From an uncultured Methylomirabilota bacterium (GTDB lineage Bacteria; Methylomirabilota; Methylomirabilia; Methylomirabilales; 2-02-FULL-66-22): 64,000 nt of DNA. The stretch covers positions 2,560,001 to 2,624,000 of the forward strand of contig CAWJSJ010000002.1 of the NCBI GenBank assembly GCA_963845565.1, given 5' to 3'. The position numbers and the translations under genes are program-made. Shown one piece after another: positions 29,780 to 43,959 of this stretch. Within the stretch, counting starts at the first letter, position 1; every line of letters starts with the position of its first letter. The notes under the pieces were generated by a model. It made no database searches, was not told the DNA's origin, and was given only the letters and a program-made list of their open reading frames with translations.

Positions 29780-30970
29780 ATGCTACGGTACTTGACGGCC
29801 GGCGAATCCCACGGGCCGGGACTGGTCGCGATCCTGGAAGGGATGCCGTCCCAGGTGCCCGTGGACGCCGCTGACATCAACGTGGACTTGACCCGCCGGA
29901 TGGGCGGGTACGGCCGTGGCGGCCGCATGAAGATCGAGAAAGACGCGGTGCGGATCCTGGGAGGCGTTCGGCACGGGAGGACGCTCGGCAGCCCCATCAG
30001 TCTTCTGATCGAGAATCGCGACTGGGAGAACTGGCAGGAGACCATGGCCGTCGACGCGTCGCCCCCCCCGGGCTCCCCGGGGCGGCCGCCGATGACACGA
30101 CCTCGCCCCGGCCACGCCGACCTCGCCGGCGGCCTCAAGTATGACCACCGGGACCTGCGCAACGTCCTGGAGCGGGCCTCGGCCCGGGAGACGGCGATTC
30201 GGGTGGCCGTGGGGGGTGTGTGCAAGTGTCTGTTGCGTGCATTCGGGGTGCGGGTTCTCGGCCACGTGGTCGAGATGGGCGGGGTACGGGCCGCCACCGA
30301 GGGACTGTCCGTCGACGAGATCGCGGAGCAGGCGGACGCCTCGCCCGTGCGGTGTGCGGACCCCATGGCGACCCGGGAGATCATGGCCAAGGTGGATGAG
30401 GCCCAGGCGCGCGGGACGTCGGTCGGCGGGGTGTTCGAGGTGCTGGCGCTGGGCGTCCCCGTGGGTCTGGGGACGCACGTGCATTGGGACCTCCGGCTGG
30501 ACGGGCGACTGGCGCAAGCCCTCATGAGCATCCAGGCGATCAAGGGGGTGGAGATCGGGCCGGCGTTTGAGGTGGCCCGTCGGTTCGGATGCGACGTGCA
30601 GGACGAGATCTACTATCGGACGCCGGACGAAGACGCCCCCGGCCGTTCGGGGTATTTCCGAAAGACGAACTTTGCCGGGGGACTCGAGGGCGGCGTGACC
30701 ACCGGCCAACCCATTGTCGTGCGGGCCGCCATGAAGCCGATCTCGACGCAGTACCAGCCGCTGACGTCCGTGGATATCGTCACCAAGGAGGCGAGTCGGG
30801 CGGGTGTGGAGCGGACCGATATTACCGCGGTGCCGGCCGCCGCGGTGGTGGGAGAGGCCGTGGTGGCCTTCGAGATCGCCCGCGCCTTGCAGGAAAAGTG
30901 CGGCGGGGACAGCCTGGCGGAGATGCGCCGAAACTTCGACGCCTACGTGGCCTACCTCCGCACCGCCTGA
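29780..30970 (+). CDS. aroC: Chorismate synthase
   Basis: TAGESHG, PRPGHADL, ERASARET, AMKPIST. Confidence 0.98.
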   Translation: MLRYLTAGESHGPGLVAILEGMPSQVPVDAADINVDLTRRMGGYGRGGRMKIEKDAVRILGGVRHGRTLGSPISLLIENRDWENWQETMAVDASPPPGSPGRPPMTRPRPGHADLAGGLKYDHRDLRNVLERASARETAIRVAVGGVCKCLLRAFGVRVLGHVVEMGGVRAATEGLSVDEIAEQADASPVRCADPMATREIMAKVDEAQARGTSVGGVFEVLALGVPVGLGTHVHWDLRLDGRLAQALMSIQAIKGVEIGPAFEVARRFGCDVQDEIYYRTPDEDAPGRSGYFRKTNFAGGLEGGVTTGQPIVVRAAMKPISTQYQPLTSVDIVTKEASRAGVERTDITAVPAAAVVGEAVVAFEIARALQEKCGGDSLAEMRRNFDAYVAYLRTA

Positions 30971-31078: not shown

Positions 31079-32860
31079 ATGGGTCGTCGGACCGGCGTCG
31101 GGCTGCTCCTCCTCGCAGCGCCGTGCTATCTCTGGGGATTGGGCGCTATCGGATTCCAGGACCCCGACGAAGGGATGTACGCCGAGATCGCGCGCGAGAT
31201 GCTGGCCAGCCGGGACTGGGTCGTGCCCACCTTCAACGGCGTGCCCTACATCGAGAAACCGCCCCTCACGTACTGGCTGACCGCGGGCAGCCTGGCCGTC
31301 CTGGGACCGTCGGAGTTCGCCGCGCGGCTCTGGAAAGTTCTGCCGATGCTCGCCACCGTGGCCCTCACCGGTGCGCTGGGCGCGCGCCTCTTTTCCCGGC
31401 GGACGGGCCTCATGGGGGCCGGCGTCCTGGCGACGACCCTGGGGACGTTCCTCTTCAGCCGCCTTGCCCAAATGGATCCGCTCCTCCTCCTCTGCATCAC
31501 GGCGTCCGCGTACGGGATCGTCCGTGCGGGTGATGCGGGGCCGGACCGGCGAGGGGTCCCCGACTTGTGGTGGTGGGGGGGAGTCGCCGGCGGGGTGATG
31601 AGCAAGGGGTTGCCCGGCCTGGTGTTTCCGCTGGGTCTCCTCACGCTCTGGGCGCTCGTCAGCCGGGATAGCGGCGTGTGGCGCCGGGTCTGGACCCTGC
31701 GGGGGGTGGTCGGCGCCGCCCTCCTCGCTCTGCCGTGGCACCTCTTGGCCGCCCGGCGGGTGCCGGGTTTCGTGCAATTCTACCTGGTCGATAACCAGCT
31801 CCTGCGTTTTCTCGGTGAGCGGGCGTATGCGGAAGACGGGCGATCGCTCGGAACGGCGGCGTTTCTCGGCGTGACGGCCTGCGCGCTGCTCCCCTGGGCT
31901 CCCTATCTGGCCGCCGCGGTGTGCAGGGCCGTCGGGGCCGGGGTGCGCGACCCGCGGTGGCGGTTCCTGCTGGGCTGGATCGCCGTGGTGATCGGGTTCT
32001 TCACGGTCTCCTCCTTCAAGCTGGAATACTACGCGTTACCGGCGTTTCCGGCCATCGCGATGGTGGTGGCGGCGCTCTTCGATCAGGCAAGCGATCGGGA
32101 AGCGCTCGGCCGGCCGGAGGACGGGGCGGGCCGCTCCGCGGGATACCGGGCACTTCTGGTGTGGACGCGCATCTCCCTGGGAGGGGGGATGCTCTACTGC
32201 CTGGGGATGGCTGTTGTGTGGTGGGGAGGGTGGCTCACGCCGGCCGCGATCATCCGCGGCCTGTCGTTCTGGTCAACGAATTACCGGATCATCCTGGACC
32301 ACGGCCTGCCGCTGCCTCCCGTGATTCCCGGGCTCTTTGGCGGCGTGCTGCTGGTCGGGGGTCTCCTGTGGGTGGCGGGCTTCGGCGTGGCGGCCTGGTG
32401 CCTCGCACATGGGCGCGTGCAGGCCGGCATGGCGGCCGTCGGGAGCGTTGGGCTGGGACTGTGTCTCCTCGCCGGTGCGGTGCTGCGTGACGTGGGGCCG
32501 CATCACTCTCTGAAGCCGCTGGCCGACCACGTGAACGCCGTGCACCGGCCGGGGGATGTGCTGATCCATGAACGTGGGCTGGAAAAAGGGGGCGGGCTGC
32601 TGTTCTACACCCAGCGTCCGGTGTTGATCTTGAACGGGCGACGGGGCGACCTGGAGTTCGGCTCCACGTTGCCGGAGGCGGAGGGGCGATTCATCGACAC
32701 CCCCCGATTTCACGAGATCTGGGACGGGGAGACGCGGGCGTTCCTGGTGACGGATCTTCCCCCCTCGCAGAGTGCGATCTCCCGGAGGTCGTCGGCGGCG
32801 CCGATCCTGGTGGCCGCGACGGGGACGCGGTGGCTGTACGCCAACCGAGCGGTGCACTGA
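31079..32860 (+). CDS. ArnT/PMT-like (GT-C fold) membrane glycosyltransferase
   Basis: DPDEGMYAEIAREM...DWVVPTFNGVPYIEKPPLTYW, MSKGLPG, FKLEYYALP; many TM helices. Confidence 0.92.
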   Translation: MGRRTGVGLLLLAAPCYLWGLGAIGFQDPDEGMYAEIAREMLASRDWVVPTFNGVPYIEKPPLTYWLTAGSLAVLGPSEFAARLWKVLPMLATVALTGALGARLFSRRTGLMGAGVLATTLGTFLFSRLAQMDPLLLLCITASAYGIVRAGDAGPDRRGVPDLWWWGGVAGGVMSKGLPGLVFPLGLLTLWALVSRDSGVWRRVWTLRGVVGAALLALPWHLLAARRVPGFVQFYLVDNQLLRFLGERAYAEDGRSLGTAAFLGVTACALLPWAPYLAAAVCRAVGAGVRDPRWRFLLGWIAVVIGFFTVSSFKLEYYALPAFPAIAMVVAALFDQASDREALGRPEDGAGRSAGYRALLVWTRISLGGGMLYCLGMAVVWWGGWLTPAAIIRGLSFWSTNYRIILDHGLPLPPVIPGLFGGVLLVGGLLWVAGFGVAAWCLAHGRVQAGMAAVGSVGLGLCLLAGAVLRDVGPHHSLKPLADHVNAVHRPGDVLIHERGLEKGGGLLFYTQRPVLILNGRRGDLEFGSTLPEAEGRFIDTPRFHEIWDGETRAFLVTDLPPSQSAISRRSSAAPILVAATGTRWLYANRAVH

Positions 32861-32864
32861 CCCC

Positions 32865-34193
32865 ATGATCCCTTTGGCCCCTGCGGTGAATACGCTGGCG
32901 ATGCGGGTGGGGCGGGTGGCACCCGCCAGCCTGCTCTGGCTGATCCGCCACTTTCCGGCGGGGGCGATGGACGGCCTTCGTCGGACCGCGCTGCGTCGGA
33001 CGGTTCGACTGGCCGGGCGGCGCTCCCGCTTCTATCGGGACAAGTTCGCCGCCCTGCACATCGACCCCGAACGCGTCCGGGACCTGGCCGACCTCCGCGA
33101 CTGCGAGACGACGCCCGAGGAGTGTCGCGCGGCTCCGCCCGACGCGCTGCTCTGCGGCCGGCCCGACCTCGTCGTCGAGAGCTCCGGGACCTCCGGGCGC
33201 GTGACGCGCCTGTATCTGTCGCACGCCGAGCTGGAATACTACGCGCGGCAAGGGGTGATCCTGCTCGCCATGATGGGGGCCGGGCCGGCGGATCGGATCC
33301 TCGGGGCCTTCGAATACGCCTGGGGGCTGGGGGGGATCTACACGCAGCGGATCGGCGCCCACAGCGGACTCTTCGGTGTCTTCCCGGGCCTGGTGGACCC
33401 CGCGGAGGCGATCGAGCGTTTACCGGAGTACCGGTTCACCATCGTGATGGGCGACCCGTTCTGGATCGCGCGCTTCACCGAGATCGCCATGGCCCGCGGC
33501 GTGCGGGCGCCCATGACGGGGTTCGTCTCCGCCGCGGAGCGGATGACGGAACGGCTGCGCGGGCTGATCGAGGACTACTGGAAGGCCCCCGTGTACATGA
33601 CCTACGCCAGCACGGAGCTGGGGGCCAGTCTGGGCGCGGAATGTGCGGAGAAGACCGGGTATCATCTGCACGAGTACGATTACGCCGTCGAGATCTTGAA
33701 CCCCGACGCCGACGGTTTCGGGGAAGTGGCGTTCACCACGCTCACGCGGTCGGTGATGCCGCTGATCCGATACCGGACAGGTGATGTGGCGCGACTGATC
33801 CCCGGGCGGTGTCCGTGCGGTCTGCCGTTTCGGCGGCTGTCCGCCATCCGGGGTCGCAACGACGAGTTGTTGGCGTGCGTGTGGGGCAACGTCCATCCCG
33901 GGTTATTCGAAGACCTGCTTCGGGGGGTTGAGGGGATCGGAGACGAGTGGCAGGTGGCGCTCCGGCAACCGGGCCTGCGACCGGTGTTCGAGTTCCGTCT
34001 CGAATCCGCGGCCGGTCCCGCCACCCCGGCGGCCGCCGAGGCGCGGATTCGGGCCAATCTCGCCGAACAGCATCCCCCCCTCTGGGCCAAGACCGAGCAG
34101 CACCTGTGCGACATCAGGGTGTCTCTGGTGCCTCCCGGAAGTCTCCGGATGGGGCGGAAGATCCGCCGGCTGGTGGACGAGCGGGGCGAATGA
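32865..34193 (+). CDS. Phenylacetate-CoA ligase (PaaK)-like adenylate-forming enzyme
   Basis: ESSGTSG P-loop, YASTE, MPLIRYRTGD, IRGRND, KIRRLVDER. Confidence 0.9.
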   Translation: MIPLAPAVNTLAMRVGRVAPASLLWLIRHFPAGAMDGLRRTALRRTVRLAGRRSRFYRDKFAALHIDPERVRDLADLRDCETTPEECRAAPPDALLCGRPDLVVESSGTSGRVTRLYLSHAELEYYARQGVILLAMMGAGPADRILGAFEYAWGLGGIYTQRIGAHSGLFGVFPGLVDPAEAIERLPEYRFTIVMGDPFWIARFTEIAMARGVRAPMTGFVSAAERMTERLRGLIEDYWKAPVYMTYASTELGASLGAECAEKTGYHLHEYDYAVEILNPDADGFGEVAFTTLTRSVMPLIRYRTGDVARLIPGRCPCGLPFRRLSAIRGRNDELLACVWGNVHPGLFEDLLRGVEGIGDEWQVALRQPGLRPVFEFRLESAAGPATPAAAEARIRANLAEQHPPLWAKTEQHLCDIRVSLVPPGSLRMGRKIRRLVDERGE

Positions 34194-34335
34194 CCCCAAT
34201 GACCAGTGGCGGCGCCGAAATTCGATGGACTTCCGGCGGAGAGTGCCATATATTCGACAGGTTGAATGCTTTTTGACTCCCGCCACGCATGAGGCGGAAA
34301 CTTGCGGGGTGCCTGCGGCTCCGCCGGAGGTGTGG

Positions 34336-35103
34336 ATGCGTCGTTCGTGGATTCTCGGTCTGCTGCTGGTGTGGTCGCTGGTGTGGGCAGGTGGTGCTCT
34401 GGCGGCAGATGTGCCCGCTGGAGAGCTCCTGCGCCTGCTTGACGCCGCCGACAAGCATTACGCGCAGGTTCACGACTACACGTCGGTCATGGTCGGTCGC
34501 GAGCGTGTGAAGGACCGGCTCCTGCCGACAGAGCAGGTGCTGCTCAAGTTCCAGCGGACGTTCAAGGTGTACATGCGCTGGCTGGATGGGCCCAGCAAGG
34601 GTCGGGAGGGCCTGTACGTGTCCGGGGCGCATGACAACAAGTTCCTGGTGTACGAGCCCAGCGGATTTCAGCAGTTGTTCACCGCGGCCCTGGAGCCGAC
34701 CGACGCCCGCGTGATGGAGAAGAGTCGCCACCCGGTGACCGATGTCGGGATCGGCCGGCTGCTGGAGATCGTCGGCGACAACGCCCGCCGGGCTGCGCGA
34801 AACGGGGTGTTGCGCGTCGTGGATCGGGGAACCGGCGAGGTGGGCGGGCGGCGGGTTCGTCAAGTGGAGGGGTTCCTCCCGAAAGATCCCGGAGCGGGGT
34901 ACTACGCCTACCGGGTACAGCTCTCGTTCGACGAGGCGAGCCGACTGCTCATTCGGGCCGTCGTCTACGACTGGAGCGACCAACTCGTCGAGGATTTCAG
35001 CTACACCGAGCTCCGCATCAACCCCGGCCTCACAGGGCTCGACTTTGATCCCAGCAACAAGGAGTATGGTTTCTCCATCTGGCGGATCCAGATCTCGGGC
35101 TAA
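34336..35103 (+). CDS. Exported DUF1571-like protein (LolA-like lipid-carrier fold inferred)
   Basis: Signal peptide; VHDYTS..GRERV, FKVYMRWL.GPSKGRE.LYV.G, SRHPVTDVGIGRL, EDFSY.EL.INPGL...DFDP.N.EY.F. Confidence 0.8.
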   Translation: MRRSWILGLLLVWSLVWAGGALAADVPAGELLRLLDAADKHYAQVHDYTSVMVGRERVKDRLLPTEQVLLKFQRTFKVYMRWLDGPSKGREGLYVSGAHDNKFLVYEPSGFQQLFTAALEPTDARVMEKSRHPVTDVGIGRLLEIVGDNARRAARNGVLRVVDRGTGEVGGRRVRQVEGFLPKDPGAGYYAYRVQLSFDEASRLLIRAVVYDWSDQLVEDFSYTELRINPGLTGLDFDPSNKEYGFSIWRIQISG

Positions 35104-35206
35104 GCCGTTGTCAAGGAATAACTTGACCGGAGAAATTTCGGGAACGGCATAAGGAGCCGTAACGAAATCACCAAAAATGGACAAGTTATTTCGTAACGGC
35201 TCCTAA
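35100..35206 (-). repeat. Repeat family A, full copy (107 bp, reverse orientation)
   Basis: CTAAGCCGTTGTCAAG...GGCATAAGGAGCCGTAACGAAAT...ATTTCGTAACGGCTCCTAA. Confidence 0.95.
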
Positions 35207-35357
35207 TCGGAGCACGGCTCCCGTTTCCGGGAGCGTGGCGGCGCTCATTCCGGGCCGGGTTCCTCCTCCGCGGCAGTGGGCTCCCTCCGGTCGTTCCTCG
35301 AGTCTCCCGTATGCCGATCGCGCGACGAAACCGGAGCCGAACGACGGATGTCTGGTC

Positions 35358-35861
35358 ATGCGCTATCGCTTCGTGGACCGCATCTTGGAAATCGACGCGC
35401 ACGGCGTCGGGACCATCACGACCTCGAAGGCGTTCGCGCGGTCCGAGGAGTTCTTCGACGGCACCTTCCGTCGGCACGACGAGGTGCCGTCGTCGCTGGT
35501 GCTGGAAGCCATGGCCGCCGCAGGATCGTTTCTCCTCACGGTCAAGAGTCGGTATCAGGTGCACGCCCTGCTGCTGAAGGTGAACCGGGCGGCGTTTCCG
35601 CGCCCCGTGCGCGCCGGCGACCAGCTGATCGTGCGATGCAGCCTGGCGGGTTTTCAGGGCGACTGGGACCGGCCGGATGCATCGGGCGCAGTGTTCGGCG
35701 TGGCCGAGGTGCATGCCGCATGCACGATCGGCGCGGACCCGGCGGCGGACGCCGCGCTACTGTTCGTCGGCCTTCCGCTGTCCCGCACGCTGGGCGCACG
35801 GCGGGAACAGGTGCTGGCCGGCATGTTGGAACTGCTGGGCTACGTGGATACGCGTCCGTGA
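35358..35861 (+). CDS. FabZ-like hot-dog protein lacking the catalytic His
   Basis: MRYRFVDRI, EEFFDGTF (GHF replaced), VPSSLVLEAMA, FPRPVRAGDQL. Confidence 0.85.
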   Translation: MRYRFVDRILEIDAHGVGTITTSKAFARSEEFFDGTFRRHDEVPSSLVLEAMAAAGSFLLTVKSRYQVHALLLKVNRAAFPRPVRAGDQLIVRCSLAGFQGDWDRPDASGAVFGVAEVHAACTIGADPAADAALLFVGLPLSRTLGARREQVLAGMLELLGYVDTRP

Positions 35862-35910
35862 TGGCGCCACGGTGCGGCGCACCAGGGGTGTGGCAAGGGG
35901 TCGGTCCCGT

Positions 35911-37197
35911 ATGAACAGGCGCGCGGTCATCACCGGCGTCGGTGTGGTCTCTCCGCTGGGGATCGGTTCGCAGGCGCACTGGGACGGACTGGTGTCCGGG
36001 CGCTCGGCCGTGGCCCGGGTGGATCGGCTGACCCGGCTCGGCTTTCCAGTGGACGTCGGCGCGGACGTCCCGGGCCAGACCGTGGCGGCGTGCGTGCCGC
36101 GCGTGCCCAAGAAGCAGGTCAAGCTCTTCAATCGCGCCACCACGTTCGCCATGGCCGCCGCCTCGCTGGCCGCCGCGGACGCCGGGATCACCGCCCCGGT
36201 GCCCGATCCGGTCCGGGCGGGCGTGATCCTGGCGACCCTCTTCATTCCCTATCCCATCCAGAGCGTCCTTCCGCTGCTGCCGAACGCCGAGGCGACCGAT
36301 ACCCGCCACCGTGTGGATCTCGGAAAGGCGATGCGGGAGTGCCTGGGTGGCGTGAATCCCCTGGATCTGTCCCTGAAGATCGTTCCTAACCTGACGGCGG
36401 GACACCTCGCCATCCATTTCGGTCTGCGCGGGGCGTGTCGTACGGTCGCCGACGGGTGGACCGGCGGCTTGACGGCCATTGCCCAGGCGGCGACCGCCAT
36501 CCGCGAGGGCGAGTTGGACCTGGCGTTCTGCGGCGGGGCGGAGTGTCCGCTGGAGGAACTGGTGTTCGCCGACCTCTGCTCCACGGAGCTCTTGTCGCCG
36601 CCCGCCACCCCTCCCGAGCGGACCTGTCGCCCGTTCGGCCTGGGCCGGCAGGGCACGGTCGTCGGCGAAGGTGCGGCGATCCTGGTCCTGGAGGCGGAGG
36701 AGCACGCGATGCGCCGCGGCGCCGCGGTCCGCGCCGTCTGTGCCGGGTTCGGCGCAGCCAGCGCCGACGCCTCCCCGGCCGGCGCCCGGGACAGCCTTCC
36801 GCGCGCCCTGCGTGCGGCGCTGGCGGAGAGCCGGCGCGACGCCCCGGACCTCGTGTCCCTGCATGGCGATGGGAGCGTGCCGGGCGACCTCGGCGAGGCG
36901 ATGGCATGGCAGATACTCGCGGCCGAGACCGGGGGCTGGCCGGCCCTGTACGCCAGCAAGGGCGCCCACGGAAATCTGGTCTCCGCCGCCGGTCCGCTGG
37001 AGGCGGCGGGCATGCTGTTGGCATTGGAGCAGGAGACGGTTCCGCCCAGCCGGAACTGCCGACCAGCCGATCCGGCGTGCGGTCTTCCCCTGGCGGCGGA
37101 TGGCCCGCGCGCCGTCCCGGGGATGCGTACCGGTGTGGTCAGTGCCCTGGGCGCGTTCGGGGAAGCCGCCTGTCTGGTGTTGACGCGCGGCGTGTGA
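35911..37197 (+). CDS. FabF-like ketosynthase homologue lacking the catalytic Cys (CLF-like)
   Basis: [18 protein letters not shown]...GEGA; ADGWTGG in place of TAC; KGAHGN in place of KSMIGH. Confidence 0.88.
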
Positions 37198-37240
37198 GCG
37201 AAATCCCGGGGGCACCCGCGCCCCCCCGGCGGGAGGCACG

Positions 37241-37987
37241 ATGCAGGTCGATCTGCGCGGAAAAGCCGCGGTCGTGACCGGGGGATCACGGGGCATCGGG
37301 GCGGCGATCAGTCGGTCCCTGGCCGCCGCGGGGGCGTCGGTGCTGATCACGTTCCGTCAGGACGAGACGGCGGCGCGCGCGGTCGTGGAGCAGATCCGTG
37401 CGGCCGGCGGTACCGCCGCCTGCCGGCAGGCGGATGTGTGCGATCGCGACGCGACCGCGGCGGCGATCGACGAGATGGCGTGTCGCGCCGGGCGCCTGGA
37501 TATCCTGGTGAATAACGCCGGGATCGTGCGGGACGCCCTGGTACCCGAAATGGCCGAGGCCGACTGGCACGCCGTGATCGAGACCAACCTCTCGGGCGTG
37601 TTCACCTCCTCGCGAGCCGCGGTGCCATACATGCTCCGACGGAAATGGGGCCGGATCATCAACATCAGTTCCGTCGGCGCCTGGCGGGGACATCGGGGCC
37701 AGGGGAACTACGCCGCCTCCAAGGCGGCGGTCAACGCGCTGACGCGGGTGATGGCGACGGAGTTCGGGCCGAGGGGCATTACCGTCAACGCGGTGGCGCC
37801 GGGGTTGATCGAGACGGACATGAGCCGCGCCCTCCTGCCGTTCGCCGAGGAGGCCATCCGCGAGCGCATCCCGCTCCGTCGGGTCGGCCGCCCCGAGGAC
37901 GTGGCGCCCCTGGTGGTGTTCCTGGCCTCGGACGCGGCAGCGTATATCACCGGGCAGGTGTTCCCGGTGGACGGCGGTCTGCTCTAG
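37241..37987 (+). CDS. fabG: 3-oxoacyl-ACP reductase
   Basis: [35 protein letters not shown]. Confidence 0.9.
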
Positions 37988-38112
37988 CAGGCTGCTGAAA
38001 AAGGGCCATCTGCTGCGTTGGCCGGCCTCGGCACTCGCTGCGGCGTACCTCCAGTACGCCTCGCTCGGCCGTCGGCCCGCCGCCTGGCATCTGGGCCTTT
38101 TTGAGCAGCCTG
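37988..38112 (+). mobile_element. Repeat family B, MITE-like element with terminal inverted repeats
   Basis: CAGGCTGCTGAAAAAGG...CCTTTTTGAGCAGCCTG; homologous to 41521-41663. Confidence 0.8.
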
Positions 38113-38151
38113 AGCGACGTGGGTATTTCAGCATGTCGGACGGGGGAAGCG

Positions 38152-38766
38152 ATGATTGAGTCGTCGGTGGACCAGAAACGCGAGTGGAGTCGGCCCGAGG
38201 TCGAGGCGGCCCTGCGGAAGATCCTGGCAGAGTCTCTGGACGTCCCGGAGGCCGCGGTGACCCCGGCGGCCTCCGTGGTCCGGGAGCTGGGTGCGGAGTC
38301 GATCGACTTTCTCGACATCGGCTTCGAGATCCAGCAAACGCTGGGCGTCGATCTGCAGACCGCGGAGATCCGCACGCGGATCATGGCCTGGACGGCGCTG
38401 ATCCACCAGGCGCTGGCGGAGATCCTGCACCGGCGATACGACGTGACGGTCACGGCCGACACGTTGCGGGCGCAGGAGGCCGGCGGACTGGTGAAGATCG
38501 TGGAGCAGTTGCAGTCCGCCACGGGCCTCGCCGCCGGTCCCGGGGCGGCGGACGAACTGGGACGCGCGTTGCTGGACCGGCTGGTGAGCGAATTCGCGGC
38601 GCTGGGCTTCGGCGTCAGCGACGCGGACCGGCAGGGCCTGCTGGCGCTCATGCGCACCGACCTCAGTGCCCGCCGGCTGCGAGAGCGCACGCTGGACCTC
38701 CTGACCGTCGGCGCGCTGGTGGATTTCATCTGCGCCAAGCTCGGCACGCGCCTGCGCGCCGCCTGA
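38152..38766 (+). CDS. Acyl carrier protein with a large internal insertion (204 aa)
   Basis: ELGAESIDFLDI phosphopantetheine-site motif; terminal DLLTVGALVDFI helix IV separated by ~110 extra residues. Confidence 0.85.
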   Translation: MIESSVDQKREWSRPEVEAALRKILAESLDVPEAAVTPAASVVRELGAESIDFLDIGFEIQQTLGVDLQTAEIRTRIMAWTALIHQALAEILHRRYDVTVTADTLRAQEAGGLVKIVEQLQSATGLAAGPGAADELGRALLDRLVSEFAALGFGVSDADRQGLLALMRTDLSARRLRERTLDLLTVGALVDFICAKLGTRLRAA

Positions 38767-38789
38767 ACCGGACCGAAGGGAACCGCCCC

Positions 38790-39308
38790 ATGCGTTTTCT
38801 GTTCGTGGATCGAATCGTCCGACTGACGCCGGGGAAGGAGGTCGTCGTCCGGAAGAACGTCAGCAACAGCGAGGACTTCTTCGCCGACCACTTCGAGGGA
38901 CGGCCGGTCATGCCCGGCTGTCTGATCCTGGAGACCTGCGATCAGGCGGCCCGCCTGCTGCTGGCGGCGTCGGCGGCATTCGCCTGCCTCCCCAGTCTGA
39001 CCGAGATCGCGAACGCCAAGATGCAGCACTTCGTCCAGCCCGGCGACCTGCTGGAGGTCCACGTGGTCCTGGCCCGGCAGACGGCGGACGCGGCGGAGGT
39101 GCGGGCCTCGGCCTCGGTCGGGGAGCGGACGGTGGCGCGCATGTCGTTCGGCTATCGCTTGCGTCCCGCGGCCTCGGACACGCAAACGGCGCGCGCCTGC
39201 CTGCGCCTGCGTGAGTTCTACGAGGTGCTCACCACGGACCTCGCGACGTTGGCCGCCGATCCGCGGCCAGCCGCGGAACCTCCGGCCGGGACGGTGCGCG
39301 ATGCTTGA
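38790..39308 (+). CDS. fabZ: 3-hydroxyacyl-ACP dehydratase, FabZ family
   Basis: FLFVDRI, KNVSNSEDFFADHFEGRPVMPGCLILE (His and Glu present), FVQPGD. Confidence 0.88.
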   Translation: MRFLFVDRIVRLTPGKEVVVRKNVSNSEDFFADHFEGRPVMPGCLILETCDQAARLLLAASAAFACLPSLTEIANAKMQHFVQPGDLLEVHVVLARQTADAAEVRASASVGERTVARMSFGYRLRPAASDTQTARACLRLREFYEVLTTDLATLAADPRPAAEPPAGTVRDA

Positions 39309-40050
39309 GGGGCAGACGGCGGTGGTGACGGGCGCCGGCCGCGGCATCGGCCGCGCCATCGCGGTGCGGCTGGCCGCGGCGGGTGCGAACGTGGTGGTCA
39401 ATTACTACCTCAACCGCGAGGCGGCGGAGCAGGCGGCAGCGGCGATCCGATCGTGCGGAGTGCAGGCGCACGTCGTCCAGGCGGACATGAAAGACCCCGA
39501 CCAGATCCGGCGGCTGTTCGACGAGGTGGGCGCGCGGTTTGGCGGGCTGGATATCCTGGTCAGCAACGCCGCCTCGGGCGTCTTTCGGCCCGCGGGAGAG
39601 CTGACCCCCAAGCACTGGGACTGGATGATGCACACCCACCCCCGGGCGTTCCTGCTCTGCGCGCAGGCGGCGGTGCCGTTGATGCAGGGCCGGCGGGGCC
39701 GCATGGTGGCGGTGAGCAGCCTCGGGTCGCAGCGGACGATCCCCAACTACGCGGGCATGGGGGCGGCCAAGGGGGCGCTGGAGTCGCTGACACGGTACCT
39801 GGCGGTCGAGTACGGGCCCCTCGGGATCGCCGTCAACGCGGTCTCCGGCGGCGCCGTGGCCACCGACTCCTGGCGGGAACTGGCCGAGATGGAGACGGTG
39901 CTCGACGAGATCGGCCGCCGAACGCCGGCGGGCCGGATCGCCGAGCCCACGGACATCGCCGAGGCGGTGTTGTTTCTGTGCAGTCCCCAGGCCGGGATGA
40001 TCCGCGGCCAGGTCCTGGTCGTGGACGGGGGCTATTCCCTCACGCTCTAA
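39301..40050 (+). CDS. fabL: FabL-type enoyl-ACP reductase (SDR)
   Basis: SNAASGVFRP...HWDW, SSLGS, Y-x6-K (YAGMGAAK), LTRYLAVE, NAVSGG; characteristic of Bacillus FabL. Confidence 0.82.
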   Translation: MLEGQTAVVTGAGRGIGRAIAVRLAAAGANVVVNYYLNREAAEQAAAAIRSCGVQAHVVQADMKDPDQIRRLFDEVGARFGGLDILVSNAASGVFRPAGELTPKHWDWMMHTHPRAFLLCAQAAVPLMQGRRGRMVAVSSLGSQRTIPNYAGMGAAKGALESLTRYLAVEYGPLGIAVNAVSGGAVATDSWRELAEMETVLDEIGRRTPAGRIAEPTDIAEAVLFLCSPQAGMIRGQVLVVDGGYSLTL

Positions 40051-40151
40051 GCCGTCGTCATGGAGTGGCTTGACCGGAGGAATTTCGGAAACGGCATGGG
40101 GAGCCGTTGCGAAATCAACAAACGGCCAAGTTGTTTCGTGACGGCTCCTAA
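40047..40151 (-). repeat. Repeat family A, diverged copy (105 bp, reverse orientation)
   Basis: CTAAGCCGTCGTCA...GGCATGGGGAGCCGTTGCGAAAT...GTTTCGTGACGGCTCCTAA. Confidence 0.9.
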
Positions 40152-40167
40152 CCGGGTCGGGGACGGG

Positions 40168-41460
40168 ATGGCGGACACGCGTGTCGCGGTGACCGGAATG
40201 GGCGTGCTCACCCCGATCGGGATCGGGGTGGAACCGTTCTGGGCGTCCCTCCTGGCCGGCCGGTCGGGGATCGCCCCCATCGAGCATTTCGACGCCTCGG
40301 GTCTCCCGGCGCGGATCGCGGGGTACGTCCGGGACCGCGCCGCGCTGGAGGCGTGGGGCCGGCGCCTGGGGGTTCCGTCGGCCGAGCCTCGGTCGCTCCT
40401 CTTCGCCTTGGCGGCGGGGCAGGAAGCCTACGAGGCCTCCGGCTGGCAGGCCGCGCTGGGCGGGGAGCGGGTCGGCGTCCTGTTCGGCTCCTACGGCGAC
40501 AAGATCGACATCGAGCGGATGGCCGAGGCGGCCTACCGGTCCCGGCACGACGGCGCGCCGGACATCGTGCCCTCCGCTTTTTTCCCGCGGTACTGTCGCG
40601 ATTTTCGGGGCCGCCAGCTCCACCGGCTGCTGCCGCAGTACGCGACCGTCCGGCTGGCCCGCATGTATCACGCGACGGGCCCCGTGTGCACCATCCAGAC
40701 GGCCTGCACCAGTTCCGCCCAAGCCATCGGCGAGGCATACCGGTCGATCCGCCGGGGGACGCTGGACCGGGCGATCTGCGGAGGGGCCGAATGCATCGTG
40801 TCGCCCAGCCAGATGCTGATGTTCTCGATCCTGGGGGCCCTGTCCACCCGCAACGAGGATCCGGCGCGGGCCAGCCGCCCCTTCGACGAAGCCCGGGACG
40901 GGTTCGTCCTGGCCGAGGGCGGCGCCGTGCTGACGCTGGAGCGACTGGACCTCGCGCGGCAGCGGGGCGCGCCCATCCTGTGCGAGCTGGCGGGGTACGG
41001 AACGGCCTGTGACGCCTATCGCCTGACCGACGAGGATCCCGAGGGGCGAGGCGCCATCCTGGCCATGGAGCGGGCCGTGACCGACGCCGGGATGACGCCG
41101 GGGGAGGTGGATTACATCAATGCCCACGGGACCTCCACCCAGATGAACGATCGGGTGGAGACGCTGGCCATCAAGACACTCTTCGGTCCGCGCGCCTACC
41201 GGGTGCCGGTCAGTTCCATCAAGTCGATGATCGGCCATGCCGTCTCGGCCGCCGGGGCGATCGAGGCGGTGGCCTGCATCCTGGCGTTGCGGGATCAGAT
41301 CCTCCCGCCCACCATCAACCAGGCGTGTCCCGACCTCCAGTGCGACCTCGACTACGTGCCGAACGTGGCGCGACCCGCGCGCCTGGACGTGGCGTTGTCG
41401 AACTCGTTCGGGTTCGGGGGGCACAACGACTGTCTGGTGTTCCGGCGGCTCCACGAGTAG
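40168..41460 (+). CDS. fabF: Beta-ketoacyl-ACP synthase II (active FabF type)
   Basis: QTACTSS (Cys), NAHGTST (His), KSMIGHA (His), SNSFGFGGHN. Confidence 0.93.
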   Translation: MADTRVAVTGMGVLTPIGIGVEPFWASLLAGRSGIAPIEHFDASGLPARIAGYVRDRAALEAWGRRLGVPSAEPRSLLFALAAGQEAYEASGWQAALGGERVGVLFGSYGDKIDIERMAEAAYRSRHDGAPDIVPSAFFPRYCRDFRGRQLHRLLPQYATVRLARMYHATGPVCTIQTACTSSAQAIGEAYRSIRRGTLDRAICGGAECIVSPSQMLMFSILGALSTRNEDPARASRPFDEARDGFVLAEGGAVLTLERLDLARQRGAPILCELAGYGTACDAYRLTDEDPEGRGAILAMERAVTDAGMTPGEVDYINAHGTSTQMNDRVETLAIKTLFGPRAYRVPVSSIKSMIGHAVSAAGAIEAVACILALRDQILPPTINQACPDLQCDLDYVPNVARPARLDVALSNSFGFGGHNDCLVFRRLHE

Positions 41461-41520
41461 CCCGCGCTCGGCACCGCGGAGGACCCTCCGTCTTAGGATG
41501 CTGGAAGACCCGTTTGTGCC

Positions 41521-41663
41521 CAGGCCGCTCAAAAAGGTCCAGATGCCAGGCGGCGCGCAAAGGGCGGGGCACCCAGCGCAGCTGGGTCCAGGCGTACTCC
41601 AGGTACGCTGCAGCGAACGCCCGAGCGCTCCAACGCCGCAGATGGGCCTTTTTCAGCAGCCTG
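41521..41663 (-). mobile_element. Repeat family B, MITE-like element (second copy)
   Basis: CAGGCCGCTCAAAAAGG...CCTTTTTCAGCAGCCTG; internal GGCGTAC...GTACGC shared with the first copy. Confidence 0.8.
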
Positions 41664-42440: not shown

Positions 42441-42731
42441 TCAGCCACGCACGGCAAAGCCGGTCAGGCCTTGGGCCTCCTCCCAGACGACGTCGACGGC
42501 GGTGACGTCGGAGGCGGGGGAGCCCCGGTGACACCACCGGATCATCGCCTCGAGGGCCTCCGGTGCGCCCTCGAAGACGGCTTCCACGCGGCCGTCGGGG
42601 GCGTTCCGGATCCAGCCGGCCACCTTCCGGAACGCCGCCTCGTCCTCGGCGTAGGCTCGGAAATAGACCCCCTGGACCCGTCCCGACACCCAGACGTGCG
42701 CGCGCAGCGTCGGGCCGGTCCTTCGGCGCAT
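42441..42731 (-). CDS. acyP: Acylphosphatase
   Basis: VSGRVQGVYFR, GWIRNAPDGRVEAVFEG. Confidence 0.93.
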   Translation of the reverse strand: MRRRTGPTLRAHVWVSGRVQGVYFRAYAEDEAAFRKVAGWIRNAPDGRVEAVFEGAPEALEAMIRWCHRGSPASDVTAVDVVWEEAQGLTGFAVRG

Positions 42732-43774
42732 CAGGTGCCCGCCCACCCGCCGTCCAGGCGACGGTCCAGCGCCCGGCAGTAGCCGCCCAGCCCGGCGTTG
42801 GACCAGACGAGCGCGGCGGAGCAGCAGAGCACCCCGTACACGGCGGCGCGCGGGATCTTGACGGTGACCGCAGGGTCGAGCAGGGTCTCGGCGTGCCGGA
42901 TGCGCTCGAGAGTCCGGAGGCCGATCAGCATCGGCCAGGCGCAGGCCAGGCGCAACCGCATCTCGGACCGGGGGATGGCGCGGGTGTATTCCCAGGCCTC
43001 GCGAAAGCCGTCTCGCGCCGAGGCCGCCAGGTCGTCGAGCACGGGGCGCACCCGCTGCGCGGCCGCCGGATCGAGCAGGTCGGCGGGCGCGAGCCCGCAG
43101 GCCGCCAGGAGCTGGCGGGGCAGATAGCACCGCCCGATCCGGAGGTCTTGGGCCACATCGCGGAGGACGTTCGTCATCTGCAGGGCCTGTCCGAAGCGCA
43201 CGCCCCGAGCGCGCATGACGTCCGGATTCCATCGGGCGCAGCCGGGCAGGTGCGCCATGGCCATCTCGGTCCAGAATTCCCCCACGCAGCCCGCGGCGTA
43301 ATAGGTGTAGCGGTCGAGATCGGCTCGGGACTCCAGGGCGGCGAGTCCCGCCGCATCCTCACCGGGGAAGGTGGTGAGATCGGCCTGCATTCCCTCGATG
43401 AGCAGCCCGAGGACGCGGCGGATGCGCGCCCGGTCGTCAGCCGGCAGCGCCGCCAGGGCGGCGAGGCACGCCGGGAGGCGGAGCAGGAGCTCGCGCTCTG
43501 CCGGGATGCGCTGCGGGCCGGACAGGGCGCCGGCGATCTCCGCCAGATCGGGGGAGGCCGGATCGTCCAGCGCGTTCCGTAAGCGCTCGAGCGCGCGCAA
43601 GCGAGCGGCGCGCGGCACCAGGCGGGTGTCGGCGATGGTGTCAGCCGCCCGTGCCAGCAGATAGGCGAGACCCAACGGCCCGCGGAGCGACCGCGGGAGG
43701 ACGCCGAGGCTCAAGGCGAACGATCGGCTGACCTGCGGCAGGATGCGCGACAACGGTTCGGGGATGGTGTCCAC
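42731..43774 (-). CDS. Squalene/phytoene synthase family protein
   Basis: VSRSFALSL, AYLLARAADTIAD, YTYYAAGCVGEFW, ALQMTNVLRDVAQD. Confidence 0.9.
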   Translation of the reverse strand: MDTIPEPLSRILPQVSRSFALSLGVLPRSLRGPLGLAYLLARAADTIADTRLVPRAARLRALERLRNALDDPASPDLAEIAGALSGPQRIPAERELLLRLPACLAALAALPADDRARIRRVLGLLIEGMQADLTTFPGEDAAGLAALESRADLDRYTYYAAGCVGEFWTEMAMAHLPGCARWNPDVMRARGVRFGQALQMTNVLRDVAQDLRIGRCYLPRQLLAACGLAPADLLDPAAAQRVRPVLDDLAASARDGFREAWEYTRAIPRSEMRLRLACAWPMLIGLRTLERIRHAETLLDPAVTVKIPRAAVYGVLCCSAALVWSNAGLGGYCRALDRRLDGGWAGT

Positions 43775-43959
43775 GTTTCTCCTCGAGTGGGCGGCCCGGT
43801 GACCCACGCCGCAGAGCATAGCACACCGGACCGGACCGCCGAAACGCCTTTGGCGCGGCTGCCGCGCCGCGGTTGCCTTTCGGGGGTTTCCCTCGTAGAA
43901 TCGCTTGCGGTCGGGGGTCGCCTTGCCCCGGCCTCCCCGTCTGCCGAAAGGAGCCACCC

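Follow-up and report, generated by a model that had tools for sequence, protein, structure and literature searches.

Aryl polyene clusters combine an adenylating ligase, a ketosynthase/chain-length factor (KS/CLF) pair and a heterodimeric dehydratase, and their product is an amino-sugar glycolipid (PMC8041823; bioRxiv 2020.12.19.423268). The rhizobial cluster acpXL-fabZXL-fabF2XL-fabF1XL-adhA2XL-lpxXL contains two FabFs and provides C28-type chains for lipid A (PMC11901934), and in anammox bacteria a FabF heterodimer of one active and one triad-mutated subunit acts as a KS/CLF (bioRxiv 2026.05.19.726425). In a 64,000-nt stretch of DNA (the window) from an uncultured Methylomirabilota bacterium with a genome of 5.36 Mb in 6 contigs, we analysed a ten-gene module in which seven fatty acid biosynthesis (fab) genes, among them a KS and a triad-mutated KS (KS*), are joined by genes for an ArnT-like glycosyltransferase (GT), a PaaK-fold ligase and an exported DUF1571 protein. 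The module, which several uncultured bacteria of soil and sediment have kept together, is a second, specialised fatty acid system, and very probably it feeds an envelope lipid.

The ten open reading frames follow aroC (29780-30970, plus strand) on the same strand and end at position 41460. Profile scans confirmed all frames and families that had been named in a previous account drawn from the letters alone (the sequence-only reading). With Pfam and NCBIfam profiles none of the ten genes was identified as FabD, FabH, a phosphopantetheinyl transferase (PPTase), a radical S-adenosylmethionine (SAM) enzyme or a desaturase. The lack of FabD, FabH and PPTase noted before thus holds for the ten genes; for the PPTase it is local, since 19 of 44 homologous loci encode an AcpS in the gap from DUF1571/SLBB to FabZ*, a gap that in the window is occupied by a dispersed repeat. 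A housekeeping plsX-fabH-fabD-fabG-acpP-fabF locus is located about 33 kb upstream, just beyond the window (G000:C2:2,552-2,558 kb, G000 being the source genome). Because this separate locus exists, a point that the sequence-only reading had put up for checking, the ten-gene module is not the housekeeping set. The source genome also carries three more specialised KS clusters.

The 44 genome loci were those with the long acyl carrier protein (ACP) of the module, excluding duplicates and L096, which is another cluster type. The order FabZ*-KS*-FabG-ACP-FabZ-FabL-KS was kept in most of them, in Methylomirabilales, Rokubacteriales and Binatia-type genomes, and was also seen in metagenome loci; in the Binatia-type loci of lower GC content, where gene calls were poor, the maps are based on tblastn. 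In its fuller recurrent form the order starts with an optional GT and optional INO1/DegT genes, continues with the ligase and optional genes for DUF1571, SLBB/Wzi and AcpS, and ends with the seven fab genes. Upstream neighbours were counted where 5 kb or more of sequence precedes FabZ*, which was so in 19 loci: the ligase was present in 19/19 and SLBB in 12/19. In a phylum sample of 151 genomes, each at least 80% complete, the long ACP occurred in 23 and an orthologue of the ligase in 17, of which 16 were ACP-positive. The seven ACP-positive genomes without ligase are assemblies of 300-610 contigs. The top tier of GT matches comprised 18/151 genomes at 313 bits or more (next 279); 16 of these were ACP-positive and a 17th had the module KS pair. 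The proposal that the GT, ligase and DUF1571 genes are coupled to the fab genes is thus borne out across distant lineages, where they do recur together. In one homologous locus (L131:6252-7814; G042:C22) a radical SAM/DUF4070 gene was inserted between ligase and DUF1571, and its product might act on the chain there. The genome record bears the title Elusimicrobia, and its KS genes group with Rokubacteriales in the KS tree.

The FabF-like KS (40168..41460) has the residues Cys180-His320-His357 and is predicted to be active. KS* (35911..37197) is of full length with Trp-His-Asn at the triad positions. A FastTree phylogeny was built from 116 KS-type proteins that the fetched loci encode. The module KSs formed one clade (support 0.956), of whose 39 rows 37 had Cys-His-His, the other two being truncated, while none of the 40 rows of the KS* clade (support 1.0) had this triad. 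Both clades were separate from housekeeping FabF and from the KS pairs of Planctomycetota. By analogy, KS and KS* may form a KS/CLF-like heterodimer that extends the chain; the tree and the triad pattern agree with the earlier view of a specialised type II system built on such a pair. The same view had set the module beside the clusters proposed for anammox ladderane synthesis and related ones of other phyla. As the nearest comparison the anammox clusters were not supported, because KS reached 346 bits with a canonical FabF and 282 bits with 9s5h_B, and KS and KS* both matched ordinary FabFs better than the chains of 9s5h, which from its two chain types we infer to be the anammox FabF dimer. 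A 'ladderane-like' FabF pair need not mean a ladderane product.

In FabZ enzymes His and Glu of the active site are contributed by different subunits. The module FabZ (38790..39308; PRK00006, 89 bits) had the His in 48/48 and the Glu in 46/48 rows, as expected of an active dehydratase. FabZ* (35358..35861; PF07977), a hotdog-fold subunit, kept the Glu in 36/36 rows, while the position of the catalytic His was Pro in 21, Thr in 10, another residue in 2 and His in 3 rows that may be cross-hits. Because FabZ* retains the Glu mostly without the His, FabZ and FabZ* are predicted to form a heterodimer with one composite active site. FabZ has its active site, with a His and a Glu, where the two subunits of the dimer meet (PMC10139942), ApeI/ApeP is a heterodimeric dehydratase with one active site (PMC8041823), and in HadAB/HadBD the non-catalytic dehydratase subunit houses the long chain (PMC10949391). 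The FabG-type ketoreductase (37241..37987; TIGR01830, 289 bits) had Tyr and Lys in 51/51 and Ser in 49/51 rows. In the FabL-like enoyl reductase (39301..40050; PRK08063, 312 bits, slightly below the cut-off of 328) Ser, Tyr and Lys were invariant across 46-47 rows. Because both reductases retain their catalytic residues the product should be saturated. Taken together the residue patterns identify the module as a fully reducing type II fatty acid or polyketide system with its own ACP, ketoreductase and dehydratase.

The ACP (38152..38766; PF00550) has 204 amino acids and the motif AESIDFLDI. Ser50 of the core was Ser in 54/54 rows. In the structural model (pLDDT 89) ACP folds aligned with about 84 residues scattered over positions 13-204; because of this spread the core is predicted to be split by a helical insertion of about 115 residues after helix II. 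Profiles of 35 homologues were compared by hhalign: segments 48-82, 80-112 and 108-140 gave mutual scores of 18.7-26.0 against shuffled maxima of 8.8-12.7, and a fourth putative repeat (134-170) was not significantly above the shuffles with 11.0-13.6 against maxima of 9.7-11.9. The profiles thus identify the insertion as degenerate repeats of the ACP's own helix-loop-helix unit. A structure search with the whole model matched the ACP core only and returned nothing for the insertion; an Atlas search with residues 66-186 scored at most 0.83, a lead only. The long-ACP family is small with 27 members among 1.84 billion representatives at E 1e-30, and ten distant full-length relatives had 189-208 amino acids and 22-30% identity.

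The sequence-only reading had taken the motif, in combination with paired FabFs, an extra FabZ and a PaaK-like ligase, as typical of the anammox and related clusters. The motif is present, but it is not specific. The anammox ACP 7auf was the top structural match (Z 10.6), tied with canonical ACPs, and was not in the best 60 of 84 sequence matches. The string DFLDI also occurs in the 'specialized acyl carrier protein' 2kw2 of R. palustris, the second-best PDB sequence match, which we take to be AcpXL, and the motif retrieved Planctomycetota ACPs of about 130 amino acids as well. Because it is common to these proteins, the motif appears to mark insertion-type specialised ACPs and not anammox clusters specifically. 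By analogy with AcpXL, the size of the ACP would imply a very long chain.

The ligase (32865..34193; 442 amino acids) matched PF14535 weakly and cleared no family cut-off, scoring 169 bits against the DVU_1553 family (cut-off 300) and 111 bits against PaaK (646). The best PDB matches were of PaaK type (4r1l, 128 bits); 6siw and 6wuq, presumably amide- or ester-forming PaaK-fold enzymes, were also among the matches. The P-loop, Y247/E251, D307, R331, K432 and three Cys were invariant in 30-34 rows. The Phe of the PaaK substrate pocket corresponds to Gly154, and because of this exchange and of the family scores phenylacetate is an unlikely substrate. In every row of full length the first 35 or so residues were basic and hydrophobic; the hydrophobic moment was unremarkable with at most 0.62, and membrane anchoring was not supported. 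The sequence-only reading had the ligase load a non-standard starter, which may be correct. In the aryl polyene cluster the adenylating enzyme ApeH loads an ACP (PMC8041823), and AmcH loads 2-oxoglutarate onto an ACP before a KS/partner dimer cyclises the product (PMC10698177). By analogy with ApeH and AmcH the ligase of the module would load a primer on the ACP. On the other hand, a late role has been proposed for the PaaK-like ligase of anammox bacteria by Rattray et al. (PMC2649909).

GT-C enzymes move sugars. The suggestion that the GT-C enzyme of the module (31079..32860; 593 amino acids; PF02366/PF13231) attaches the acyl product was thus dropped. The protein was 24% identical to E. coli ArnT over 565 amino acids including the periplasmic domain (E 2e-28), and D30/E31, E59/K60, D133, K176, R243 and Y318 were conserved across 15 rows. 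The GT-C fold and the ArnT catalytic motifs are present over the full length, while the cut-off for ArnT equivalogs in NCBIfam was not passed (165.8 of 567 bits). In a FastTree phylogeny from which two long branches had been removed, 25 module-linked GTs formed one clade (support 96), separate from the GTs that lie next to arn genes in genomes lacking the module and from other ArnT-like groups; 22 came from ACP-positive genomes, one from a genome with module KSs, one from a genome with only the ligase and one from a genome with neither. The GTs of the Binatia-type loci with lower GC content were outside this tree.

Of the 31 loci in which 1 kb or more is available downstream, 23 had an arnC gene within 1.5 kb after KS, mostly together with genes for a formyltransferase, a dehydrogenase and ArnD. 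The fullest operon (G138) encodes a geranylgeranyl-reductase-family oxidoreductase (GGR), GT, INO1, two DegT proteins, ligase, DUF1571, SLBB, AcpS, the seven fab proteins, ArnC, formyltransferase, dehydrogenase and ArnD. Its DegT-B, ArnC, formyltransferase, dehydrogenase and ArnD were 40, 49, 40, 29 and 37% identical to E. coli ArnB, ArnC, ArnA, ArnA and ArnD, respectively. In the source genome ArnC-, ArnD-, formyltransferase-, dehydrogenase- and DegT-B-like genes are scattered away from the module. In a Rokubacteriales-type family (f9) ArnD was found in 15/90 genomes, of which 12 had the ACP and another two had module genes; in the remaining one, cut by a contig end, the module KS was not found. 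Because the ArnC/A/D block follows KS so regularly and capsule-export genes are frequent, the donor of the GT-C enzyme is probably a polyprenyl-phosphate amino sugar. These genes of the relatives are the best clue to the donor.

Further genes recur around the module and its GTs. A 170-residue conserved protein without Pfam or NCBIfam match (L147:8535-9050) and a CpoB-like tetratricopeptide repeat protein (L147:7723-8532) are encoded after arnD in most Rokubacteriales loci. A cis-prenyltransferase gene (PF01255; L127:3784-4563; look-alikes in L126, L157 and L165) and Wzi-like genes lie near module-type GTs unlinked to fab genes; the extra cis-prenyltransferase hints at a dedicated polyprenyl carrier. 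In some lineages genes for INO1, a DegT aminotransferase (best PDB match 8gyh, 248 bits) and GGR recur upstream of the ligase (L148:4790-7199, L148:9260-10426) and could supply an aminocyclitol head group. INO1, GGR and Wzi had no match in the source genome.

The exported DUF1571 protein (34336..35103; PF07608, E 2e-39) starts with a signal-like N-terminus (hydrophobic segment 6-24). Its model (pLDDT 90.6) retrieved RseB (E 2e-9) and LolA, LppX and LprG (E 2e-8 to 3e-6) by Foldseek and aligned with 4mxt over 182 residues (VIA, Z 14.9, rmsd 3.6), showing the open beta-barrel and helical lid of the LolA type. The predicted fold fits a periplasmic lipid carrier, and as a common fold it leaves the cargo undecided. 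Thus the lipid trafficking ascribed to DUF1571 beforehand gains a carrier fold, and the role itself would follow by inference. DUF1571 was found in 15/151 genomes, nine of them ACP-positive. Near the module of relatives Wzi, Wzz, UpxY and inositol-phosphate synthase were recurrent. The term DUF1571 was not found in a full-text literature search.

Our preferred reading, held tentatively and with slightly less than even confidence, is that the module makes a long saturated chain which is built into a separate amino-sugar-bearing envelope glycolipid. The PaaK-fold ligase, which has the motifs for it, would adenylate a carboxylic acid primer and load it on the enlarged ACP as ApeH and AmcH do; the primer would not be phenylacetate, and a fatty or other non-aromatic acid is a guess. 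AcpS and FabD would be supplied from elsewhere in the genome. Extension by KS/KS*, reduction by FabG, dehydration by FabZ/FabZ* and saturation by the FabL-like enzyme would follow, in keeping with the residue patterns and the supposed dimers, and the growing long chain would be sheltered by the repeat-expanded ACP in the manner of AcpXL. An enzyme outside the identified cluster genes would move the chain to a membrane glycolipid precursor, to which the GT-C enzyme may add, on the periplasmic side, a sugar from a polyprenyl-phosphate carrier. Genetic linkage suggests that this sugar is of the aminoarabinose type in most lineages, made by ArnA/B/C/D-like enzymes. Finally, the LolA-fold DUF1571 protein, in relatives together with SLBB/Wzi capsule machinery, may bring the product to the surface. 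We favour a stand-alone glycolipid, possibly the anchor of a surface polysaccharide, over lipid A as the acceptor.

Several observations weigh against this reading. Neither a thioesterase nor an acyltransferase was found in the window or in 17 recurrent neighbour families, so the transfer of the chain lacks an enzyme. Lipid A is the usual acceptor of ArnT, and with LpxC in 146/151 genomes it is available everywhere; the idea that module-bearing genomes lack lipid A was rejected for this reason. The GT is adjacent to the module in 9/19 loci only, the rows of the GT tree were picked by likeness to the focal GT, and with the long branches retained IQ-TREE did not join the three groups of module-linked GTs. 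ArnD was not found in 7 of the 23 ACP-positive genomes, and two of these ArnD-negative genomes, G025 and G090, both 95% complete, hold only ArnC-like GT2 proteins of 42-44% identity. Conversely, the family of the window has ArnD in 9/10 genomes and the ACP in 4/10; arn genes occur in six of its genomes that lack the module, with GTs of the other clade where found, and in G015 SLBB runs directly into arnC without fab genes. DUF1571 is an optional member (12/19 loci), and in 6 of the 15 genomes that have it the ACP is missing and the gene stands in unrelated contexts. In addition, the genomes counted are kin and not independent trials, and surface-polysaccharide islands collect envelope genes whatever the pathway. 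Thus the module seems to need a GT-C enzyme; the sugar that serves as donor can differ, and an arn pathway does not require the module.

We considered whether the locus serves two parallel modifications of lipid A. An AcpXL-like very-long-chain acyl-ACP would then be used by an unlinked acyltransferase of the LpxL/LpxJ type, and the GT-C enzyme, as the ArnT of the lineage, would add an amino-pentose to a lipid A phosphate, with a common acceptor and no common intermediate. This is possible, though on balance we think it rather unlikely. It agrees with the DFLDI string shared with 2kw2, with the two FabFs of the C28-producing rhizobial cluster (PMC11901934) and with the widespread LpxC; the source genome itself carries a block of lipid A genes, recognised by eye from their names, and two LpxL-family (PF03279) genes. 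Furthermore, the ten matching genomes of the window's family each have exactly one GT of the broad group, focal or arn-adjacent, as if these were interchangeable ArnTs. Yet none of the 17 recurrent neighbour families scanned is an LpxL-type acyltransferase, and both LpxL-family genes (C2:1,673 kb and C1:463 kb) lie within other specialised clusters, one of which, with FabL, a 189-residue ACP, KS, two FabZ, AcpS, KS* and LpxL, suits the AcpXL role better. The scores against PRK06508 (ACP, 34 of 83), PRK06501 (KS, 351 of 629) and PRK06519 (KS*, 69 of 320), which we take to be the XL families, were far below the cut-offs, and the invariant ligase and the LolA-fold carrier would be left unexplained. 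If instead the ligase acted at the end of the pathway, it would couple the completed fatty acid, once ArnD has acted, to the free amine of the sugar on polyprenyl phosphate, and an N-acylated sugar would be delivered by the ArnT-like enzyme; the lipid chain would thus be added from the periplasmic side, in place of an acyltransferase, to lipid A or another acceptor. We regard this as unlikely. It would explain the absent acyltransferase, the ligase in 19/19 loci, the arnC-A-A-D block behind KS in 23/31 and the dedicated GT clade, and the pocket unlike that of PaaK, the basic and hydrophobic N-terminus and the matches to 6siw and 6wuq suit it; on the other hand the scheme depends on a free acid, for whose release no thioesterase was identified, ArnD is missing from two module genomes that are nearly complete, the N-terminus has an unremarkable hydrophobic moment and no case of an ArnT that transfers an acylated sugar is known to us. 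Improbable to a like degree is a variant in which the repeat-expanded ACP carries the very long saturated chain during synthesis, the ligase attaches it to the polyprenyl-phosphate amino sugar, and lipid A or a capsule anchor receives the acylated sugar. If true, delivery by ligase and ArnT-like enzyme would be a new way to add lipid chains on the periplasmic face.

The product could also be a small non-lipid acyl unit that is aminated by DegT and decorates a surface polysaccharide. Such a unit, for instance a short cyclic, an aryl-alkyl or an amino acid, would be grown from an unusual primer as for cispentacin or coronafacate. One or two DegT genes ahead of the ligase in several loci, the precedent of AmcH and the KS/partner dimer (PMC10698177) and sub-threshold matches of KS to AmcF (241 of 325) and FabZ to AmcE (46 of 140) point in this direction. 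However, we consider it quite improbable given the full set of ketoreductase, dehydratase and enoyl reductase, the full-length KS*, the enlarged ACP and the lipid-carrier fold; the operon in the window has no DegT genes, and KS scored 430 bits as a canonical FabF compared to 241 for AmcF. A ladderane or ladderane-precursor pathway is highly improbable, in line with the earlier judgement that the product is probably not a ladderane. The combination of KS and triad-mutated KS is that of anammox Cluster I (bioRxiv 2026.05.19.726425), the anammox ACP (amxACP) is the top, though tied, structural match of the ACP core, and one homologous locus has the inserted radical SAM gene. Yet radical SAM and phytoene-dehydrogenase-like genes are absent from the window and from the 17 recurrent neighbour families, the enoyl reductase is conserved and KS prefers canonical FabF to 9s5h_B.

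Apart from its genes the operon contains two families of short intergenic repeats at 35100-35235 and 40047-40167 and at 37988-38112 and 41518-41663, respectively; each family has about 160-190 near-full-length matches genome-wide and one has terminal inverted repeats. One repeat sits where relatives carry acpS. Four contig sets from RNA libraries covered the locus patchily with some near-identical pieces and with depth peaks that coincide with the dispersed repeats; because carry-over of DNA is possible they were not used as evidence. The adjacency of aroC as a hint at an aromatic starter was rejected, since aroC, located after a pilM-Q block, neighbours only 4/44 loci and is absent from the Rokubacteriales and Binatia-type loci. 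A gene of the squalene/phytoene-synthase family (PF00494) at 42731-43957 on the minus strand keeps its position in close relatives only and lies outside the module elsewhere.

Other specialised clusters of the source genome were mapped as well. The cluster at L002:12511-18973 (G000:C2:1,667.5-1,674 kb) encodes a FabL-like protein, a 189-residue ACP with a Cys-rich C-terminal extension, KS, FabZ, AcpS, FabZ, a triad-less KS and an LpxL-family protein and looks like a non-rhizobial counterpart of acpXL-lpxXL. In G009 (L035) a cluster of this type is merged with a KS*-FabZ-KS-FabG block that stands apart in the source genome (L001:10573-14342). A large lipid cluster (L263:9261-14001, L004, L005:1-6778; G000:C1:461-492 kb) encodes radical SAM and B12-radical SAM proteins, LolA, MMPL, a PaaK-like ligase, KS paralogues, ACP, FabZ, methyltransferases, a phytoene-dehydrogenase-like oxidoreductase, GT2 and LpxL and is more like the Kuenenia/Desulfotalea clusters than the focal module is. 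In Planctomycetota a FabZ - ACP (ESIDFLD) - FabZ* cluster, optionally continued by KS* and KS, is widespread (L078-L116 and several of L203-L256).

The envelope chemistry of uncultured Rokubacteriales and related Methylomirabilota is readable mainly from genes. Besides aryl polyene lipids and rhizobial very-long-chain lipid A, the module would be a third context in which a KS/CLF-type system feeds the envelope. DUF1571 gains a predicted fold and a genetic setting, the ACP doubled by tandem copies of its own helices offers a direct test of the sheltering of long chains by carriers, and the compact set of seven fab genes, ligase, GT-C enzyme, carrier and arn block is suited to expression and assay. 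No published description of the module was found in searches that left most subscription papers and all bioRxiv supplements outside.

Compared with the known systems, the closest analogues are the aryl polyene and rhizobial AcpXL clusters, and the module departs in a defining property from each of these and from anammox Cluster I. With the aryl polyene clusters it shares, by residue pattern, the adenylating loader (ApeH), the KS/CLF, the one-site dehydratase (ApeI/ApeP) and the ketoreductase without a FabD, and their product is a galactosamine-containing membrane lipid (PMC8041823; bioRxiv 2020.12.19.423268). In contrast to them the module has an enoyl reductase, one ACP of 204 residues instead of two small ones, a GT-C enzyme instead of the GT2/acyltransferase, no MMPL exporter or acyltransferase, and the arn-type linkage. 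The acpXL-lpxXL cluster is similar in its special DFLDI-type ACP with an insertion after helix II, two FabFs, FabZ and role in the outer membrane (PMC11901934), whereas the module lacks LpxXL and AdhA2XL, has its own FabG, FabL, second FabZ, ligase, GT-C enzyme and carrier, and differs by an ACP of double length and by family-model scores that fall well short of the cut-offs in NCBIfam. Anammox Cluster I (amxACP, amxFabZ, amxFabF2/amxFabFmut) likewise has a KS/CLF-like FabF pair, a dedicated ACP and FabZ (bioRxiv 2026.05.19.726425); a 'phenylacetyl-CoA ligase' is found in the Kuenenia/Desulfotalea type II fatty acid clusters, and a PaaK-like ligase in the second anammox cluster (PMC2649909). 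Unlike these the module has no B12 radical SAM or phytoene-dehydrogenase homologue, has an enoyl reductase, and its KS sequences do not resemble 9s5h more closely than they do ordinary FabF. The Planctomycetota FabZ-ACP-FabZ*-KS*-KS clusters share the ACP motif, an insertion-type ACP of about 130 residues, KS/KS* and two FabZ, but their KS and KS* form separate clades, and ligase, GT-C, DUF1571 and arn genes were not seen in the mapped loci. To arnBCADT the module loci are alike in their ArnB-, ArnC-, split ArnA-, ArnD- and ArnT-like proteins (24-50% identity to E. coli); they differ in the coupling to a fatty acid module, in the GT score (166 of 567 bits) and in the absence of ArnE/F from the recurrent neighbours. 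Thus the enzyme classes of the module are known, their conserved combination is undescribed, and one part, the repeat-expanded ACP, is unusual.

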